This document shows positions 162 to 8,021 of a stretch of 8,021 bases of DNA, piece by piece. How positions within the stretch are numbered: the first letter of the stretch is position 1; the number at the start of each line of letters is the position of its first letter. This DNA comes from a virus (Monodnaviria > Loebvirae > Hofneiviricota > Faserviricetes > Tubulavirales > Inoviridae). Location: positions 1-8,021 of the IMG/VR virus record IMGVR_UViG_2695420487_000001; one strand, written 5' to 3'. Under the pieces are notes generated by a model. That model had not been told where the DNA came from. It did not search any database and was given only the letters and a program-made list of their open reading frames with translations. The position numbers and the translations under genes were made by a program.

Positions 162-584
162 TTACCAGTGATATGAATTTCTTCTGTGCCACCAATAAAG
201 CAGCCCGTATCCGATGATAAGAATTCCGAAAAACATCAACGACATTCCCCAGCCAGTTCCATACCACGAAACCATATCATCGAAAACCAATCCACCCGTT
301 TCACGTACTCCGGCAGCTTCCTTAAGGATTGGTTTGAATACCGGAATCAGAAGGGCAATCGCCAGTGGAGCACCCCAGCGAACAAGACCTGTTTCCATTT
401 TGATCCCGAAAAAGATCCCCGCCCCAACAACAAGCAGCCAGACTATCAGGCTAGGCGCAGTTTCCAGAGCTGTTTGCCATTCAACATCGAAAGTTTTCAT
501 TAGCCAGGCAACAACTGCCAGACAGAAAGCAAATATGCCCACGACAACCAGTTCAACGCCGCTTGTTTCGTTATTTCTACTCAT
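162..584 (-). CDS. Hypothetical small integral membrane protein (about 4 predicted TM helices), 140 aa; phage accessory gene or flanking host gene
   Basis: Intact 140-aa ORF with four long hydrophobic stretches (e.g. VELVVVGIFAFCLAVVAWLM, GWGMSLMFFGILIIGYGLLYWW). AAGGA Shine-Dalgarno-like motif about 8 nt upstream of the ATG on the minus strand. The overlapping opposite-strand ORFs lack such features. No family recognised by eye. Confidence 0.6.
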   Translation of the reverse strand: MSRNNETSGVELVVVGIFAFCLAVVAWLMKTFDVEWQTALETAPSLIVWLLVVGAGIFFGIKMETGLVRWGAPLAIALLIPVFKPILKEAAGVRETGGLVFDDMVSWYGTGWGMSLMFFGILIIGYGLLYWWHRRNSYHW

Positions 585-682: not shown

Positions 683-1129
683 TTACTCTTCGCCTGACAA
701 TGCTTTTTTCATAAACATTTTTGTACTGTAAGTATATGAACTTAATGCAGAAACTTGCCTTGCAAGTGCCAGAATATCTTGCTTCTCCAGTGTTCTGATG
801 TTCCACACGATGAAATTATGCGCGTTCGTGGTTTCTTCATCAGTATATCCGTCCGCAGAAGTTATCAGCTTTCGCTCAGTAGCTTCTTCTTTAACATCAA
901 GAGCATAGCCATAAGCTAAGGTGTTCAAATCTGCGCCAGTAATTTTAGCTATCTGAATTATATCGCTGAATTTAGGTTCAGTTTTGCCGGACGCTATCCT
1001 GACCAGCGTACTTACGCTAATGCCAGTCTTCTCGGCCAGTTCTTCATAAGTCGAGTGTTCCAGAATTGCCTTTTTTATACGTTCTGCTCTCTGTTTGTCC
1101 GCCATAACTTCATGCTCATTGTTGCCCAT
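683..1129 (-). CDS. Helix-turn-helix (XRE / Cro-C1-like) transcriptional regulator, putative prophage repressor, 148 aa
   Basis: Intact ORF. The N-terminal segment EELAEKTGISVSTLVRIASGK has a typical HTH pattern. GGAG lies 7 nt upstream of the ATG at 1129. The gene is transcribed divergently from the replication gene gII, the arrangement seen for repressors of temperate filamentous phages (e.g. CTXphi rstR). The C-terminal roughly 80 residues are unassigned. Confidence 0.8.
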   Translation of the reverse strand: MGNNEHEVMADKQRAERIKKAILEHSTYEELAEKTGISVSTLVRIASGKTEPKFSDIIQIAKITGADLNTLAYGYALDVKEEATERKLITSADGYTDEETTNAHNFIVWNIRTLEKQDILALARQVSALSSYTYSTKMFMKKALSGEE

Positions 1130-1300: not shown

Positions 1301-2353
1301 ATGATCGACTGGTTTACCGGAATTCTTCCTTGCACACACCGACCGTTACCGGCCGGTAGTGTCGTCAGCGTTGATGCTGACGGTGCAGTGGAGTGGGAAA
1401 CAGTAAAGCGGTTGACCGTTCGCGGTTCATACGAATCCACAATGAAAGTACGATCTGTTGGATCAGACGGGGAGGGCCGGGCAACTCATCTTTATATTGA
1501 CGGAAATCCGTCAAAATTTCTTCAGGGGCATTCTGTTATTGGCTCCGATGATTTGCAGGGGCTGGTATTAACCGCTTACGCAAGAATATTGGCATTACTT
1601 CATATTCCTCATGATCTACCATCCTATCGTCAGGTAATGGCAGGGCAATTTAAGATCTCACGCATTGATATTAACTACATGTATTCATTATCAACGCTGG
1701 AAAATGTCCGCGCATGGCTATATGCCGCAGAATTCAAGGCTAAAACTCGCCATGGTCGCGCCTGTGGTAAAGGTGGAACTGTTTACTTAGGGAAAAACTC
1801 CCGGCGGTGGAGCCTGAAATTTTATTCAAAATATGATGAGCATATTTCTGGTAAAAAAGGACACCAGATAGCAGAAGAGTTTGTTAAAGCTGGCTTACTT
1901 GACTGGTCTAAAGATAAATTACGAATTGAATTGACGCTAAGAACAACAGAATTAATTGACTTAAACCTTACGCTTGGCAGTAACTGGAATATCGATACTC
2001 CAAACAAATTATTCTCTGAATATGTAGGGAGAATAGAAATGAATCAAAATGCCATTTTGACCGATGAAAAAATAGTTAAACTGCCGAGAAAAATACAATC
2101 AACATATTTACTGTGGAAGCAGGGCGCAAACATGAAAGAAATGCTTCCAAAGCCAACATTTTACAGGCACCGAAAAGAATTATTGTCTTTCGGGATAGAT
2201 ATTAATTTTTATTGTGAATCCCCTGATTCAAATAATGTTGTTCCATTAGTAAGAACACTTGAAGCTAAACCAGCCCAAATCCCTACATGGGTTTATGAGA
2301 AAGGTTTTATTTTTGATTACAACCGTATTTCACATGCCAGTAACTGGCATTAA
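1301..2353 (+). CDS. gII: Replication initiation protein pII (rolling-circle nickase, Phage_CRI-type), 350 aa
   Basis: Starts MID... like fd/M13 pII. Conserved blocks recognised from memory of M13 pII: KFLQGHSVIGSDDL vs KVLQGHNVFGTTDL, KISRIDINY vs TISRIDATF, NNVVPLVR near the C-terminus. It is followed by the gV/gVII/gIX/gVIII block as in Ff/IKe. Confidence 0.9.
   Translation: MIDWFTGILPCTHRPLPAGSVVSVDADGAVEWETVKRLTVRGSYESTMKVRSVGSDGEGRATHLYIDGNPSKFLQGHSVIGSDDLQGLVLTAYARILALLHIPHDLPSYRQVMAGQFKISRIDINYMYSLSTLENVRAWLYAAEFKAKTRHGRACGKGGTVYLGKNSRRWSLKFYSKYDEHISGKKGHQIAEEFVKAGLLDWSKDKLRIELTLRTTELIDLNLTLGSNWNIDTPNKLFSEYVGRIEMNQNAILTDEKIVKLPRKIQSTYLLWKQGANMKEMLPKPTFYRHRKELLSFGIDINFYCESPDSNNVVPLVRTLEAKPAQIPTWVYEKGFIFDYNRISHASNWH
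2039..2353 (+). CDS. gX: pX-like protein from in-frame internal start within gII (C-terminal 104 aa of pII)
   Basis: ATG at 2039 is in frame with gII, and MNQNAILTDE aligns with the M13 pX start (MNIYDDSAV) by position within pII. Inferred by analogy only. Confidence 0.45.
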   Translation: MNQNAILTDEKIVKLPRKIQSTYLLWKQGANMKEMLPKPTFYRHRKELLSFGIDINFYCESPDSNNVVPLVRTLEAKPAQIPTWVYEKGFIFDYNRISHASNWH

Positions 2354-2364
2354 AGGAGCGTGAT

Positions 2365-2682
2365 ATGTCTAATTATGGTCTTTTTGTAAAAGGTAAAATG
2401 CTTGGTGCTCGTCAGCGTAATAAAGTCAATGGTCAGGGCTATTACAATGAAATTGGTATCGGTTTAGAGATCCCTGATGGTTTTGGCGGTACTAAGCAAG
2501 ACCAAATAATTATTCGTGTATCACAGTCCCTTGTGAACGCCGGAGTCATGAATCAAGCCAATAGTTTTACGGGGAAATTAGTTCAAATCCCTGTATATGT
2601 TCGTGTCTGGTCAATGGAGGGTAGAGAAGGTGTGACTTATAATATTTCATCAGATGGTGGGATCACTGAAATAAAAGGTTAA
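2365..2682 (+). CDS. gV: Putative ssDNA-binding protein (gene V position), 105 aa; not obviously similar to fd/IKe pV
   Basis: Intact ORF with a strong AGGAG Shine-Dalgarno 8 nt upstream. It occupies the gene V slot between gII and gVII. Function is assigned from synteny, not from sequence similarity. Confidence 0.55.
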   Translation: MSNYGLFVKGKMLGARQRNKVNGQGYYNEIGIGLEIPDGFGGTKQDQIIIRVSQSLVNAGVMNQANSFTGKLVQIPVYVRVWSMEGREGVTYNISSDGGITEIKG

Positions 2683-2684
2683 TT

Positions 2685-2771
2685 ATGGATGATGTTATTC
2701 AAATATTAATAGCATCCGGCATTGTTATTTCTTTTGGTCTTGGTGCTATTACCGCAGGTGTCATTCGTTAA
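2685..2771 (+). CDS. gVII: Minor coat protein pVII-like, 28 aa
   Basis: Small hydrophobic peptide MDDVIQILIASGIVISFGLGAITAGVIR. It starts 3 nt after the gV stop and its stop overlaps the next start (TAATG), as in Ff phages. Resembles M13 pVII (…IQISVVLCFALGIIAGGQR). Confidence 0.6.
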   Translation: MDDVIQILIASGIVISFGLGAITAGVIR

Positions 2772-2866
2772 TGTATATTGTGTATTTCTTCGGGGCTTAT
2801 ACCTTAGGATTTGCCCTTTTCTATGCGGTCGGTTCGTTTAAAACATTATCTGACCGATTAATGTAA
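2771..2866 (+). CDS. gIX: Minor coat protein pIX-like, 31 aa
   Basis: MYIVYFFGAYTLGFALFYAVGSFKTLSDRLM. AGGTG lies upstream and the start overlaps the gVII stop. Position and size match Ff pIX (…YFTRLM…). Confidence 0.6.
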   Translation: MYIVYFFGAYTLGFALFYAVGSFKTLSDRLM

Positions 2867-2895
2867 TAAAACCTAACTTAAATGGAGTTATTTAT

Positions 2896-3138
2896 ATGAA
2901 AGTCATTTCTGTTATTAAATCTAAAATTGCTGTGGCTTCAACCGCACTTTTTGTTTCTGCAAGTTGTTTTGCTGCTGATGGCGCAACGGGTAGCACTGAC
3001 TATGCAGGTCAGGCAATGGATTCACTGCTGACTCAGGCAAACGATCTTATTGCAAAAGTATGGCCTGCTGTTGTCGCTGTCGTTGGTGCGGGTCTTGCCA
3101 TTCGTTTGTTTAAAAAGTTCTCTTCGAAAGCAGTTTAA
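2896..3138 (+). CDS. gVIII: Major coat protein pVIII precursor (signal peptide plus about 54-aa mature coat), IKe-like
   Basis: GGAG 7 nt upstream. Signal peptide ends ...SASCFA. The mature part ADGATGSTDYAGQAMDSLLTQANDLIAKVWPAVVAVVGAGLAIRLFKKFSSKAV closely resembles the IKe/Ff coat (…IRLFKKFSSKAV), with acidic N-terminus, hydrophobic core and basic C-terminus. Confidence 0.9.
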   Translation: MKVISVIKSKIAVASTALFVSASCFAADGATGSTDYAGQAMDSLLTQANDLIAKVWPAVVAVVGAGLAIRLFKKFSSKAV

Positions 3139-3147
3139 AATTCACTC

Positions 3148-3171
3148 AGGGGCACTCGTTGCCCCTTTATT
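3148..3171 (+). terminator. Rho-independent terminator after gVIII (stem GGGGCA / TGCCCC, then TTTATT)
   Basis: 3149-3154 ggggca pairs with 3160-3165 tgcccc and is followed by tttatt. This is the same position as the strong terminator after gene VIII in Ff phages. Confidence 0.7.
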
Positions 3172-3184
3172 AAAGCGGGTTATT

Positions 3185-4428
3185 ATGAAAAGGAAAATAT
3201 TAATTATTTCCGCTATTCTTATTTCTTCTTTTTCACATGCTGATTCATGGGAAAGCATTACTAAATCTACTTTTCAAAGCTCTGCCTATTCTGAAAGTAA
3301 GCAAATAACCAACCAAGATGGCACTAAACAAACTGTTTATTATATTGATGCAGCTATGCAGGCTTCTGCCTGTCAGGGGGCTAAAGACAGTGCTCAGGGT
3401 GTTTTTACTCAGGTTAAACCAACTTATGAGGGAGTATGGCCTAACTCTGAATTCCGTCTTGTGTTTTCTGACGCTTGTACCTACAGCGACTCTCCGGGCC
3501 AGAAAGATAAATACTGGAATTTAACCGCTTATATTATCGGTGATATTCAGCGTTCTATTCCTGATGAAAAACCCTCCGAGCCTACACCTGAAGAAATTTG
3601 TGAAGCTAAACCTCCTGAAGAAGGTGTATTTAATAATGTCTATCTTATGATGGTGATCGTTATATTTATTATAACGGTTGTGAATATGAGGCCACTGGCG
3701 TCATTGTTTGCCAGGGTGATGGCACTGTTTGTGCGGCGACATGGAAGCCTACCGGAACCGTAGCCGATCCTTCAGATAAGCCTTCTTCTCCTGCTGGCGA
3801 TGGTGGGGATACTGGAGGCGGGGATACGGGGGGTGGTGATACTGGAGGAGGTGATACAGGCGGTGGTAACTCAGGTGGCGGTAACTCAGGTGGTAATGGC
3901 TCAAGTATTACCAAAGGAGATATTCAGTCAGCTATTGAAGGTGCTTCACCTAAAATGGCCAGTGAGATTCATGATAAGTTAACAGAAAAAGACACCTCAT
4001 CTGATGATAAAAAATCGGCTGATGAACAGACTAAAAATAATATAAATCGTCTTGGTGACGCTATAAATAACCTTACTCGCGGAGCCGGACGTTTTGCTGA
4101 TCCTTCTGGCGGTGATTCTCGTTATGGGAAAGGGGATTCCGAATTAGACAGTGCTTCAACATTGGCTGAATCCGAATTAGGAATAGCTAAAGATTCTCAT
4201 GGTGCTTTATGGGAAGCATTCCTGAATAAAGGTGCTATGCTCCCTAGTTTACCTAATGGTAATGGTTGTTCTGAACTTGTTATTTTCCCCGGTGAAATTT
4301 ATCAGATTGATATTGAATGCGATAAATTACTTACTATCAAAGATGCGCTTTCATGGATTTTTTATTGCCTTACCTTCTGGTATGTATTTACGTCTTTAAC
4401 CTCATTACTTCGTAAAGGAGGTGAGTAA
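3185..4428 (+). CDS. gIII: Adsorption / minor coat protein pIII, interrupted by a frameshift (N-terminal part in frame 2 to about 3643, remainder in frame 1 from about 3646); pseudogene or sequencing error
   Basis: Signal peptide [19 protein letters not shown]. The span 3185..4428 is 1244 nt, not a multiple of 3. Frame 1 after the shift gives [37 protein letters not shown] (like the fd N1 motif DRYANYEGCLWNATGVVVCTGDETQCYGTW), a Gly-rich linker (GGDTGGG repeats) and a C-terminal domain ending …[36 protein letters not shown] (like fd …CDKINLFRGVFAFLLYVATFMYVFSTFANILRNKES). Frame 1 has no start codon near the shift, so the two parts are one gene. Confidence 0.8.
3796..3900. repeat. Tandem near-identical short repeats encoding the glycine-rich linker of pIII (GGDTGGG x4, GGNSGG x2)
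   Basis: Direct reading: ggtggggatactggaggc / ggggatacggggggt / ggtgatactggagga / ggtgatacaggcggt / ggtaactcaggtggc / ggtaactcaggtggt. The reverse complement produces the spurious proline-rich ORF 3669..3914. Confidence 0.8.
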
Positions 4429-4769
4429 TGCCTTTATTATTAGGTATTCCTGCACTATTGCGTTTTCTTATTGGGCTTGTTCCTTTATTTATTGGCTATG
4501 TGGCAAGCTTCCTCGCACGCCTTGCGACTAAAACAGGATTGATAGCTGTAGCATTAGTTGCATTAATTACAACAACTGTCACTCTCTTAATGCAATATCT
4601 TGCTGAGGTTATGTACAATGGCCTTCCTGCTGATTTTTCACATTTAATTGCATCTGTCTTACCAGACCATTTTCAGGCCTGTGTTAATGTCATTATGATT
4701 ACTCGAATTAGCGTTTTTGTTTTCGATTTAAAACAAAAATTCCTTGATTATGCAAACAAGGTGATTTGA
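4428..4769 (+). CDS. gVI: Minor coat protein pVI, 113 aa
   Basis: [16 protein letters not shown]… resembles M13 pVI MPVLLGIPLLLRFLGF…, and …VFVFDLKQKF resembles …IFIFDVKQKI. Strong AAGGAGGTGA Shine-Dalgarno. The start overlaps the gIII stop and the stop overlaps the gI start. Confidence 0.9.
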   Translation: MPLLLGIPALLRFLIGLVPLFIGYVASFLARLATKTGLIAVALVALITTTVTLLMQYLAEVMYNGLPADFSHLIASVLPDHFQACVNVIMITRISVFVFDLKQKFLDYANKVI

Positions 4770-5864
4770 ATGACGGTTCATGTCGTAACAGGGAAATTAG
4801 GTTCAGGTAAGACACTGGTTAGTGTTGCCAGAATACAGGAAAGACTAGCTAAAGGCTGTCCTGTAGCCACTAATCTAGATATTAAACTACATAATATGCC
4901 CATGGTTGGTCGTTATGCGAAAAAAACACGCGTGATTCGTGTCCCTGACAAACCTTCATTAAATGATCTGCTGGCTATTGGTGTAGGCAATACTTCCTAT
5001 GATGAATCACGTAATGGTCTACTGGTTCTTGATGAATGTGGGACTTGGTTTAATTCCCGTTCGTGGGGGGATAAAGACAGACAGCCAGTTATTGACTGGT
5101 TTTTGCATGCCCGTAAATTAGGCTGGGATATTATTTTTCTGATTCAGGATATTTCGATTATGGACAAGCAAGCACGGCTGGCGCTTGCGGAGCATGTTGT
5201 TTATTGTCGTCGTTCAGATAAGTTAAACATCCCATTTATTGGTTCTTTCATGAATATAATTTCAGGTGCTCGTTTTTCTTTACCAAAGGTTCACTTTGGT
5301 ATTGTTAAATATGGTGACAACGTTAATTCAATAACTGTTGATAAATGGATGTATACCGGAAAGTCATTATATTCCGCCTACAATACAAAACAGGCTTTTA
5401 CTGATAATTATCCGCATGGTGCTTATTCGCTTTTGCCGCCATTTATTACACATGGTCAGTTTTCCGTTAACAAAGGGTTTAATTATTATATGCGCCTCAC
5501 GAAAATTTACTTTCGAAAATCAAACCGATTAATATTAATGCTTTCATTTCTGGCATTGGGGCTTGGACTTGGCTTCTGGCTACAATCTGGTAAGAATGCT
5601 GATGAGATTTCGGCTATTAAATCTGCTCATGCTGAACAGGTGAGGGCAGTAACTCCTGACAGTACCAGCGATTTACCGAGACTATCAATTAATTCCTTCT
5701 CTCAACTTGGTTTTGATGTTTCCGTTACGTTTGTTGATGCTAAGGGTATGAAGTACCAGTATTTTGATTTAATTAAAGATGGTTATTCTGTTGATATTAA
5801 AGATGCCTGCCGAATTGTTATCAGAAAAGGCCGTTATTTACAAAACATCACCTGCCAGGAGTAA
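4770..5864 (+). CDS. gI: Assembly protein pI (Zot-like P-loop ATPase), 364 aa
   Basis: Walker A motif GKLGSGKT at the N-terminus. Long stretches nearly identical to remembered M13 pI (VTGKLGSGKTLVSV, LLVLDECGTWFNSRSW, IDWFLHARKLGWDIIFL, DKQARLALAEHVVYCRR). C-terminal TM segment LILMLSFLALGLGLGFWL. Confidence 0.95.
   Translation: MTVHVVTGKLGSGKTLVSVARIQERLAKGCPVATNLDIKLHNMPMVGRYAKKTRVIRVPDKPSLNDLLAIGVGNTSYDESRNGLLVLDECGTWFNSRSWGDKDRQPVIDWFLHARKLGWDIIFLIQDISIMDKQARLALAEHVVYCRRSDKLNIPFIGSFMNIISGARFSLPKVHFGIVKYGDNVNSITVDKWMYTGKSLYSAYNTKQAFTDNYPHGAYSLLPPFITHGQFSVNKGFNYYMRLTKIYFRKSNRLILMLSFLALGLGLGFWLQSGKNADEISAIKSAHAEQVRAVTPDSTSDLPRLSINSFSQLGFDVSVTFVDAKGMKYQYFDLIKDGYSVDIKDACRIVIRKGRYLQNITCQE
5490..5864 (+). 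CDS. gXI: pXI-like protein from in-frame internal start within gI (codon 241)
   Basis: MRLTKIYFRKS aligns with the M13 pXI start MKLTKIYLKKFS. It is in frame with gI. No obvious Shine-Dalgarno, so expression is inferred only by analogy. Confidence 0.45.
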   Translation: MRLTKIYFRKSNRLILMLSFLALGLGLGFWLQSGKNADEISAIKSAHAEQVRAVTPDSTSDLPRLSINSFSQLGFDVSVTFVDAKGMKYQYFDLIKDGYSVDIKDACRIVIRKGRYLQNITCQE

Positions 5865-5871
5865 TATTATT

Positions 5872-7137
5872 ATGCGTTTATTTTTCATTGCTATCTTATT
5901 CACTTATTCTTTTTGCGTTTCTGCTGAAACTGTTAACCTGAATAATTCATCCGTTCGCTCATTTGTCCAGTGGTATTCATCAAAAACTGGCAAGCCCGTT
6001 ATTGTTAATCCTGATGTTAAAGGAACCGTAACGGTATTTAATGCTGATGTTAATCCCACAAATATTGATAGTTTCTTCAAATCTGTACTGAATGCTAACG
6101 GATTTGTCATGCTTTCGGGTAATCCTGCAGTAGTCTCTTTGCCGTCAAAATTACCATCACAGATGGCGTCAGACCTTGATGATGCTGATATTCGGTCTTA
6201 TGACTCTTTCCCGTCTGAGCCATCTTATCAGCCAGCGCCAGTGGAGTTTACTGTCAGAAATTTTAAGCTGACAAAAGTTCGATCGTCTGATGTTCAGCAA
6301 CTGGTTAAAATTTATCTGGATTCTAATGGCGGGGGTAATGTTGTGGATTATCCTGGCAATAACTCCCTGATTGTTTCCGCACCTGATGAGCTGCTTCCCG
6401 TCCTTTCCGATTTCATCAATTCAGTGGATGTTGCCCGCGATCAGGTTTTGATTCAGTCGCTGATGTTTGAAACCAGTCTGTCGGATGGTGTTGATTTGTC
6501 GTTTGCAGCCGGTTCTGCATCCGGGCATAAAGTAGCAGGGGGCTTTAATACTTCAGCATTGGGTAGCGCATTGTCGACTGCCGGCGGCTCTTTTGGCATT
6601 TTTGATGGTAATGTTCTGGCCGTATCCCTGCGTGCGGTGCAGAGTAACTCCCGGTCTAAGGTGATTTCAACGCCCCGGATTCTTACCCAGTCTGGTCAGA
6701 CAGGCTATATTTCTGTTGGTAAAAATGTACCCTTTATCACGGGTAAAGTTACGGGTGAATCTGCCGGGGTAAATAATCCGTTTCAGACCATTGAACGTCA
6801 TGATGTTGGCGTATCTCTGAAGGTGACGCCTGTTGTTATGGGGAACGGCCAGCTTGTACTTACTATTGATACCCGCGCTGATTCCATCAGCAACGATGAC
6901 CAGGCATCTGATATTATTACGAACCAGCGTCAGATACAGACAACAGTTCAGATTAAGGATGGCCAGACGCTCTTACTTGGTGGGCTGATTGATTCATCAT
7001 CCAGCAATGCTGACCGTTCTGTACCGTTTATCAGTAAAATTCCGGTGATTGGCTGGCTTTTCAGGAGTAAAGCTGACAGTAATGAGCAACGCATTATGTA
7101 TGTTCTGCTGACCGCTCATATTATTCGCGCGCTTTGA
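5872..7137 (+). CDS. gIV: Outer-membrane secretin pIV (phage assembly/export channel), 421 aa
   Basis: Start chosen at MRLFFIAILFTYSFCVSA (signal peptide) with AGGAG about 10 nt upstream; the track ORF start at 5779 lies inside gI. Secretin blocks closely match remembered M13 pIV: VIVNPDVKGTVTVF, SGQTGYISVGKNVPFITGKVTGESAGVNNPFQTIERHDVGVSLKV, DGQTLLLGGL, VPFISKIPVIGWLF. Confidence 0.95.
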   Translation: MRLFFIAILFTYSFCVSAETVNLNNSSVRSFVQWYSSKTGKPVIVNPDVKGTVTVFNADVNPTNIDSFFKSVLNANGFVMLSGNPAVVSLPSKLPSQMASDLDDADIRSYDSFPSEPSYQPAPVEFTVRNFKLTKVRSSDVQQLVKIYLDSNGGGNVVDYPGNNSLIVSAPDELLPVLSDFINSVDVARDQVLIQSLMFETSLSDGVDLSFAAGSASGHKVAGGFNTSALGSALSTAGGSFGIFDGNVLAVSLRAVQSNSRSKVISTPRILTQSGQTGYISVGKNVPFITGKVTGESAGVNNPFQTIERHDVGVSLKVTPVVMGNGQLVLTIDTRADSISNDDQASDIITNQRQIQTTVQIKDGQTLLLGGLIDSSSSNADRSVPFISKIPVIGWLFRSKADSNEQRIMYVLLTAHIIRAL

Positions 7138-7287
7138 TGGGGCCGTGGCGGGTGCGTTAAGCCCCGGTATGGCCACATCAAGAGCCGGATTTTACGTTTC
7201 ACCACGGAGCCTCTATATGGCCTTAAAACTGACAGGATATGAACAGAAAGACATCTTCTAGGTAATTCAATTACTTAGAGGTTTTTT

Positions 7288-7536
7288 ATGTCTGTAAAAA
7301 GCAGGGTGCGCGATCGACTCCCCAGTGGTCGCATGAAGTCTTACCGTCGTGTTAGTTCACATTTTACCAGTTGTTCCAGGTGGTTTGATAAATCACCGTC
7401 CTGGTATCGCAATATGATGATGACCCGGCCAGAGCGCCGTGAAGTCAGAAAGCTTCTTAATCAGGTCTTGCGTGGTCGTGATGCTGACGGTATCGCATTT
7501 CCTGTCAGTAACAAGCCGTTTGCATGGTGGTGGTGA
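7288..7536 (+). CDS. Hypothetical small basic Arg/Trp-rich protein, 82 aa (accessory ORF between gIV and the dif-like site)
   Basis: Intact ORF with GAGG about 7 nt upstream of the ATG. High Arg/Ser/Trp content and the ending …FAWWW; no family recognised. It lies in a segment that looks GC-richer than the phage body. Coding status not verified. Confidence 0.4.
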   Translation: MSVKSRVRDRLPSGRMKSYRRVSSHFTSCSRWFDKSPSWYRNMMMTRPERREVRKLLNQVLRGRDADGIAFPVSNKPFAWWW

Positions 7537-7916
7537 ACTTTTTAGCCGCTAAAATTTAATGCTTACGAAGTTATCGTAAACTCCGGTCAGTGACAAAACT
7601 CGTTTTGTTGCTGTCCGGGGTTGGCCAAGCCGTACAGTTTTCATTTTGAGCGTTATAGCTGATTCGGCGCGGCAGCGTTCATCTTATCTGACATTGTGGC
7701 TGTATTTCTGGGGAAGGTTTCATGTATCAGGTACAGATTTACCAACTGCAACTGGATGAACAGGCCTGATTGGTGAGGTCAGGCCGTTCACTTACTGCTG
7801 ACAGACATTTGATTCTGATTCGTCTGGAGAAACGGATGATTTTGAATCACTGTCGATAGTTGCCAGTTGACGCCAAGTGTCAACGATTCCCGCCAGATTC
7901 TGCCATCCTTACCATT

Positions 7917-8010
7917 GGTGCGCATAATGTACGACTCGTTATGTTGAAAAGGCCGCTGCGAAAATCGAATCCCGCAGCGGCCTCTTTAGCATAACGTCAT
8001 TGTGCGAACC
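7917..8010. other. dif-like XerC/XerD recombination site pair in inverted orientation forming a roughly 94-nt imperfect palindrome (candidate attP / integration junction of an IMEX-type filamentous phage)
   Basis: 7917-7927 GGTGCGCATAA equals the E. coli dif XerC arm 11/11. It is followed by tgtacgactcg and by TTATGTTGAAA (7939-7949; dif XerD arm TTATGTTAAAT, 9/11). An inverted copy lies at 7984-8010: ctttagcataa (9/11 to the reverse-complemented XerD arm), then ttgtgcgaacc (9/11 to the reverse-complemented XerC arm). Between them is a perfect 10-bp GC stem. Confidence 0.65.
7951..7982. other. Central GC-rich stem-loop of the palindrome (ggccgctgcg / cgcagcggcc, 12-nt loop); could also act as a bidirectional terminator
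   Basis: 7951-7960 and 7973-7982 are exact reverse complements. The stem is followed by tcttt on the + strand and ttttcaac on the minus strand. Confidence 0.5.
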
Positions 8011-8021
8011 AAAAATCTCAA

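Follow-up and report, generated by a model that had tools for sequence, protein, structure and literature searches.

A one-base frameshift in the gene for an IKe-type attachment protein in a dif-integrating filamentous prophage of Escherichia coli

Positions 3185–3645 of the window (the whole stretch of DNA that was analysed, 8021 bases) are, with a probability that we put at about 90%, the 5' part of gene III of a dif-integrating, IKe/I2-2-like prophage of Escherichia coli, a gene whose product has the domain order of IKe G3P, would in its intact form function much as the IKe and Ff proteins do, and has been inactivated by a one-base deletion. In the first-pass annotation, the ~130 N-terminal residues of this protein were taken for an unrecognised domain within a new pIII architecture. 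The domain is the known, crystallised pilus-binding domain of IKe and I2-2, and neither it nor the architecture is new. The architecture is accordingly of little importance, since it has been familiar from IKe and I2-2 for decades, with a crystal structure and a Pfam family in existence. The present analysis adds two things: gene III carries a fixed one-base frameshift, and the prophage that harbours it has been identified.

The prophage and its surroundings

Judged by its sequence, the window represents a filamentous E. coli prophage of the IKe/I2-2 type that integrates at dif and is close to the published UPphi viruses. It contains a full inovirus gene set on the plus strand, arranged in the order found in IKe and accompanied by reverse-oriented genes, an insertion sequence end and a dif-like site:

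1–96 (approximately): end of an IS1 element, abutting the prophage
162–584, minus strand: 140-residue ORF without Pfam match, called "membrane protein" in the PLSDB record of a related prophage
683–1129, minus strand: HTH repressor-like gene
1301–2353, plus strand: G2P replication protein
2365–2682, plus strand: G5P
2685–2771, plus strand: small gVII-like ORF
2896–3138, plus strand: Gp8 major coat protein
3148–3171, plus strand: GC-rich hairpin (AGGGGCA/UGCCCCU) with UUAUU after it, between the stop codon of gene VIII and the start codon of gene III
3185–4428 (stop included), plus strand: gene III (G3P), split by a frameshift
4428–4769, plus strand: DUF5455 ORF in the gVI position
4770–5864, plus strand: Zot/pI
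5872–7137, plus strand: pIV secretin
7288–7536, plus strand: 82-residue ORF after gene IV, without Pfam match
7917–7944: dif-like hybrid site, GGTGCGCATAATGTACGACTCGTTATGT, the first 15 nucleotides of which are those of E. coli dif

The 140-residue and 82-residue ORFs lie on either side of the core phage genes, where the UPphi viruses have their accessory genes. From position 91 on, the window and a prophage adjoining hipA in E. coli NZ_CP144928.1 are 99.96% identical, with two substitutions and one indel in 7.9 kb. Tandem prophage units, too, adjoin hipA. In the assembly GCA_977064715.1, a unit consisting of a 369-residue ORF, IS1 and the phage is tandemly repeated with a period of ~9.85 kb (locus L005, 2194–2891 and 12047–12579); since the repeated unit includes IS1, it was duplicated after the IS1 insertion.

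A scan of the window for E. coli dif with up to three mismatches returned no site, and a looser scan identified the hybrid at 7917–7944, in which the 15 identical nucleotides are the XerC side of dif. In two of the fetched loci (L001 and L005), copies of this hybrid site adjoin hipA and separate the tandem units, and two others have an exact dif where the array ends distally (L007, 7924–7951; L002, 9036–9063).

The hairpin that separates gene VIII from gene III has a predicted folding energy of -12.6 kcal/mol (z = -1.95) and was not called by a consensus terminator scan. In IKe, a stem-loop terminator is annotated at the same gVIII–gIII position, and the hairpin of the window is likely to be an attenuating terminator.

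Domain structure of the gene III product

Gene III of the window lies between gVIII and gVI, the latter represented by the DUF5455 ORF, as does the gene for G3P of the IKe/I2-2 type. The intact protein consists, in this order, of a signal peptide, an N-terminal domain of ~110 residues (domain 1), a cysteine-containing domain similar to fd N1, a glycine-rich linker and a C-terminal anchor domain. In the window these elements are distributed over two reading frames:

3185–3241, plus strand: start (ATG at 3185) and signal peptide, residues 1–19, aligning with the annotated 19-residue signal peptide of IKe
3242–3568, plus strand: IKe-type pilus-binding domain, residues 20–128, a discrete domain with Cys63 and Cys98
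3569–3643, plus strand: KPSEPTPEE connector and first part of the N1-like (TolA-binding-type) domain, residues 129–153, the last stretch in the original frame
3643–3644, plus strand: frameshift site, with one T of a TT pair missing (intact allele TAT TCT TAT, window TAT CT TAT)
3644–3763, plus strand: out-of-frame tail of 39 residues and stop codon, identical to the C-terminus of the catalogued protein P0118
3643–3768, plus strand, -1 frame: remainder of the N1-like domain, residues 154–195 of the intact protein, with Cys166, Cys176 and Cys183
3769–3903, plus strand, -1 frame: glycine-rich repeat linker, as read from the translation
3904–4428, plus strand, -1 frame: C-terminal domain of G3P with membrane anchor, and stop codon

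The identity of the N-terminal domain is directly evident from several comparisons. Residues 20–128 match the PDB entry 4EO0, entitled [quoted passage not shown], with an E-value of 1e-27 and 47–50% identity, and residues 22–125 match the Pfam family PF21443 (G3P_pilus-bind) over profile positions 2–105 of 105, with a score of 87.4 bits against a cut-off of 27 bits. When domain 1 alone was compared with IKe using BLASTP, the identity was 50% (E 1e-38). The mature N-termini are nearly the same as well, DSWES in the window and DNWES in IKe. An AlphaFold2 model of residues 20–133, built with 27 homologues, has a mean pLDDT of 94.2 and was superimposed by Foldseek on 4EO0 with TM scores of 0.89/0.96, an rmsd of 1.0 Å and 47% identity; 4EO0 was the sole PDB match of the model at E <= 0.001, and at the same threshold the sole match in the viral structure library was a 115-residue protein with 46% identity. 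Structure prediction followed by a Foldseek search, which the first-pass annotation had proposed as a check on the novelty of the domain, has thus returned the IKe fold.

Beyond this domain, the intact protein is colinear with the G3P proteins of IKe and I2-2 throughout, at 56% identity, and both of these proteins contain PF21443 followed by PF05357, the same order as in the intact protein of the window type. This alignment had been named at the outset as the comparison on which the novelty of the domain would stand or fall, and it refutes the novelty. Public databases, moreover, already list the intact protein (WP_053902684.1) as an "attachment protein" and give both of its Pfam domains as precomputed matches. 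The case for a hitherto unrecognised receptor-binding domain and a new pIII architecture could be argued from the dissimilarity of the domain to fd N2 and from its location before the N1-like motif, but the full-length match to PF21443, the 4EO0 homologue and predicted fold, the identical domain order in IKe and I2-2 and the existing public annotation of both domains reduce the probability of that reading nearly to nil.

The beginning of the N1-like motif, 16 residues long, is invariant in the alignment of the window-type protein with IKe and I2-2, and aligns with the PDB entry 4EO1 and, from residue 5 on, with fd N1. Its first cysteine, Cys139 (ICEAKPP...), is aligned to Cys7 of mature fd G3P, which means that in fd the cysteine motif begins about 7 residues after signal peptide cleavage and not, as the first reading had it, about 30 residues after the signal peptide. 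Residues 130–195 match 4EO1, another chain of IKe G3P, at E 1e-25, and the domain matches fd N1 chains at E 1e-12 to 1e-13; PF05357 follows PF21443 in the intact protein with 32 bits, and all four cysteines of the N1 type (C139, C166, C176 and C183) are conserved.

Downstream, the DNA that encodes the linker contains tandem repeats with a period of 15/30 bp at 3802–3894, and the C-terminal domain aligns with residues 208–403 of fd G3P and with the C-terminal domains of IKe and I2-2; gene callers report only its last 157 residues as an ORF (3955–4428). The description of a glycine linker that leads straight into the C-terminal domain is therefore accurate, with the qualification that in the window both are encoded in the -1 frame. 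No counterpart of fd N2 was found in gene III: fd chains align to residues 137–223 (N1) and 197–411 (C-terminal domain) only, and a Pfam scan of the intact protein returned PF21443 and PF05357 and no N2 family, so that the reported lack of an fd-N2-like domain is borne out. The arrangement of Ff proteins, in which N1 is the first mature domain and N2 the next, is not that of the window G3P. The original description, an additional N-terminal domain followed by N1, a glycine linker and the C-terminal domain without N2, holds for the order of the parts and fails in one respect, as domain 1 and most of N1 are encoded in different frames.

A fixed frameshift in gene III

The frameshift is seen directly in the DNA. 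The reading frame that opens at 3185 runs through Tyr153 (3641–3643), continues for 39 out-of-frame residues and terminates at 3761–3763, and everything that comes next in the intact protein, from the remainder of the N1-like domain through the linker to the C-terminal domain, has to be read in the -1 frame (3643–4428). The intact allele, in E. coli NZ_CP144928.1, encodes 414 amino acids, and the missing T is the only indel that distinguishes the two prophages in 7.9 kb. Instead of a gene in a single frame, the window contains a 192-residue ORF (3185–3763) and a 157-residue ORF (3955–4428). The end coordinate of the region described in the first-pass annotation, 3645, coincides with the site of the frameshift, which was missed there.

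The alteration of a single base in a short T run, together with an intact allele in the closest complete genome, is what a sequencing or assembly error in a truly intact gene III might look like. This explanation has very little to recommend it once other assemblies are considered. The 192-residue product is identical to P0118 and is encoded on 82 contigs (in 108 index blocks), the 157-residue ORF is identical to a second catalogued protein, P0109, found on 67 contigs, and at the DNA level the single-T allele is present in six fetched loci (L005–L010), four of them in NCBI assemblies and two in Logan run assemblies, with another locus (L001) carrying the TT allele. Six independent loci and 82 contigs rule out sequencing error as the cause of the frameshift. 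The recurrence of the broken allele in six or more independent assemblies marks it as a mutation inherited within an E. coli lineage, and gene III of the window is a fixed frameshift pseudogene in that lineage.

The full-length protein could in principle still be made if programmed -1 ribosomal frameshifting or transcriptional slippage bypassed the lesion, and a -1 shift that re-reads T3643 would indeed restore the exact intact protein. The site, GUC UAU CUU, is not a slippery heptamer of the X XXY YYZ type, however, and it lacks a homopolymer run, which makes programmed recoding unlikely; close relatives, furthermore, encode G3P in one frame. We consider such a bypass highly improbable and retain the interpretation of gene III as a pseudogene.

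The window allele would give rise only to a 192-residue fragment, in which the signal peptide and domain 1 are followed by 25 residues from the connector and N1 and then by the 39 out-of-frame residues. Because the protein is truncated inside the N1-type domain and the C-terminal domain is cut off from the signal peptide, the prophage copy is predicted to release no infectious virions on its own; as tandem copies exist, one with an intact gene III in the same genome might complement it in trans. It is conceivable, and in our view less likely, that the fragment, which carries a signal peptide, has been kept because a periplasmic or membrane-held pilus-binding domain hinders superinfection or a pilus system. 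In any case, a functional inference or annotation that assumes an intact pIII in the window would be wrong.

Other damaged alleles of gene III exist in related prophages (P0003, P0126, P0077 and P0035). They include frameshifts elsewhere in the gene that lead into the same alternative frame; in addition, one allele joins G3P domain 1 to the secretin, and another joins G3P to the C-terminus of Zot. Some of these alleles may be assembly errors. The genome from which P0003 originates has 11 matching places.

Variation of domain 1, receptor and relation to known phages

The variability of G3P was assessed in an alignment of 28 full-length family members, using as the reference P0014, a protein of the window type that is one residue off the intact allele. 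Identity to the reference across the 28 members ranges from 19 to 97% in domain 1, from 47 to 98% in the N1-type domain and from 42 to 95% in the C-terminal domain. Individual members are mosaics: P0058 is 29% identical to the reference in domain 1, 86% in N1 and 51% in the C-terminal domain, and the corresponding values for P0037 are 35%, 85% and 62%. Such domain-wise mosaicism suggests either exchange of modules or rapid diversification of the receptor-binding domain. On these alignments, domain 1 is the most divergent part of the protein and is its fast-evolving or exchangeable module, as expected of a receptor-binding domain. This variability makes it the region in which determinants of host range should be sought.

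The domain-1 family is small. An exhaustive search of 1.84 billion cluster representatives yielded 15 at E <= 0.001, and a word-indexed homologue search with domain 1 alone retrieved 13 proteins, mostly partial. The named source organisms of the full-length members belong to the Enterobacterales. When P0058, P0037 and P0064 are viewed together, identity in the pilus-binding domain falls to 19–35%, with the adjacent N1-type domain remaining at 73–86%.

By virtue of its homology to the pilus-binding domain of IKe G3P, domain 1 is likely to be the primary-receptor-binding module, in agreement with what had been supposed from its position. The two domains of IKe G3P were reportedly found to be functionally independent by Jakob and colleagues in 2012. 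In IKe p3, the first domain binds the pilus and the second binds TolA (PMC6431161), and this division of labour is the best-supported model for the intact protein described here, for which we infer both pilus binding and TolA binding. By homology with IKe and Ff, domain 1 would bind a retractile pilus, which is a conjugative one in the case of IKe and I2-2; retraction of the pilus would then bring the N1-type domain to TolA in the periplasm, and the C-terminal domain would insert into the inner membrane for uncoating. During assembly, the C-terminal domain would cap and release the virion, as in Ff.

As domain 1 is only 47–50% identical to that of IKe, the receptor specificity of IKe is not transferable to it. 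One possibility is that domain 1 retains the fold and recognises a pilus or other surface structure different from the receptors of IKe and I2-2, which are the N and I2 conjugative pili. Several observations point in this direction. The distance of domain 1 to both the IKe and I2-2 domains compares with 91% identity between those two. It is the most divergent module among the 28 members (19–97% vs 47–98% for N1), with mosaics such as P0058. Finally, in the only published attempt with a related phage of the UPphi group, neither IncI-bearing strains nor the I2-2 host JE-1 could be infected with UPphi901 (PMC7307601). Judged by the GGGES linker repeat described for UPphi901, its domain 1 is apparently of the P0026 type, 83% identical to that of the window. 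On the other hand, immunity, low titre or growth conditions may account for these failures, and IncI plasmids were present in every UPphi901 host of that study (PMC7307601). On balance, we entertain a different receptor as a tentative proposal, somewhat less probable than its opposite. If true, it would explain why UPphi901 does not propagate on IncI or I2-2 hosts. The identity of the receptor matters because IKe-like, dif-integrating prophages are widespread in E. coli and Salmonella.

The YpfPhi/CUS-1 prophages resemble the window type in being integrated at dif, in forming tandem arrays and in having Enterobacterales as hosts. Their genes II and V are >85% identical to those of UPphi901, whereas the structural genes, including that for the attachment protein, are <20% identical (PMC7307601). 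Given this low identity of the structural genes, the receptor data for YpfPhi/CUS-1 (a wide host range, with pilA and psaA not needed) were rejected as a guide to the present phage.

The G3P proteins of Ff phages (fd/M13/f1) have a homologous, TolA-binding N1 domain with the same four cysteines, a glycine-rich linker and a homologous C-terminal domain. In Ff, however, N1 comes first and is followed by the F-pilus-binding N2, whereas the window type has no N2 and carries a pilus-binding domain of an unrelated fold before N1.

The closest match in architecture is G3P of IKe and I2-2 (Lineavirus; 4EO0 and 4EO1; PF21443 and PF05357), which has the same domain order and, as predicted here, the same domain-1 fold. 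Kept in the window type are the length of the signal peptide, both cysteines of domain 1, the 10-residue junction, the four N1 cysteines, the glycine-rich linker and the C-terminal anchor, along with the gene order gVIII–gIII–gVI. Identity to IKe and I2-2 is 47–50% in domain 1, about 73% in N1 and about 51% in the C-terminal domain, and the glycine linker is shorter than theirs (414 vs 434 amino acids for the whole protein). Unlike IKe and I2-2, the phage of the window is integrated at dif, contains accessory ORFs and a repressor-like HTH gene, and has a frameshifted gene III.

The UPphi viruses occur as tandem prophages integrated at dif in E. coli, Salmonella, Klebsiella, Citrobacter and Yersinia enterocolitica (Shapiro & Putonti 2020, PMC7307601), and they possess all of the IKe/I2-2 genes, reverse-oriented ORFs beside dif and extra ORFs after gene IV (PMC7307601). 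Gene III is the most variable gene of the group, and an early stop in it has been noted in one assembly (PMC7307601). The window shares with these viruses the dif integration, the tandem units and the core IKe/I2-2 genes. A 7938-bp circular "plasmid" of Salmonella enterica in PLSDB (NZ_CP140410.1) is ~84% identical to positions 1302–8013 of the window and probably represents a related phage in its replicative form; if so, members of this phage group are active.

The UPphi group as published is very tight, with genes of its own (h1 and h2) and at least 98% amino-acid identity to the core genes of UPphi901 (PMC7307601). The other E. coli prophages of the family that span most of the window, from more than 15 complete genomes, are about 84–85% identical to it at the DNA level. 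UPphi901, compared here by its description, has a GGGES linker repeat, which differs from the repeat in the window linker; two catalogued proteins with a GGGES repeat as in that description, P0025 and P0026, are 81–86% identical to the window G3P. From these two sets of values, the prophage of the window is probably a sister lineage of UPphi901 and not UPphi901 itself.
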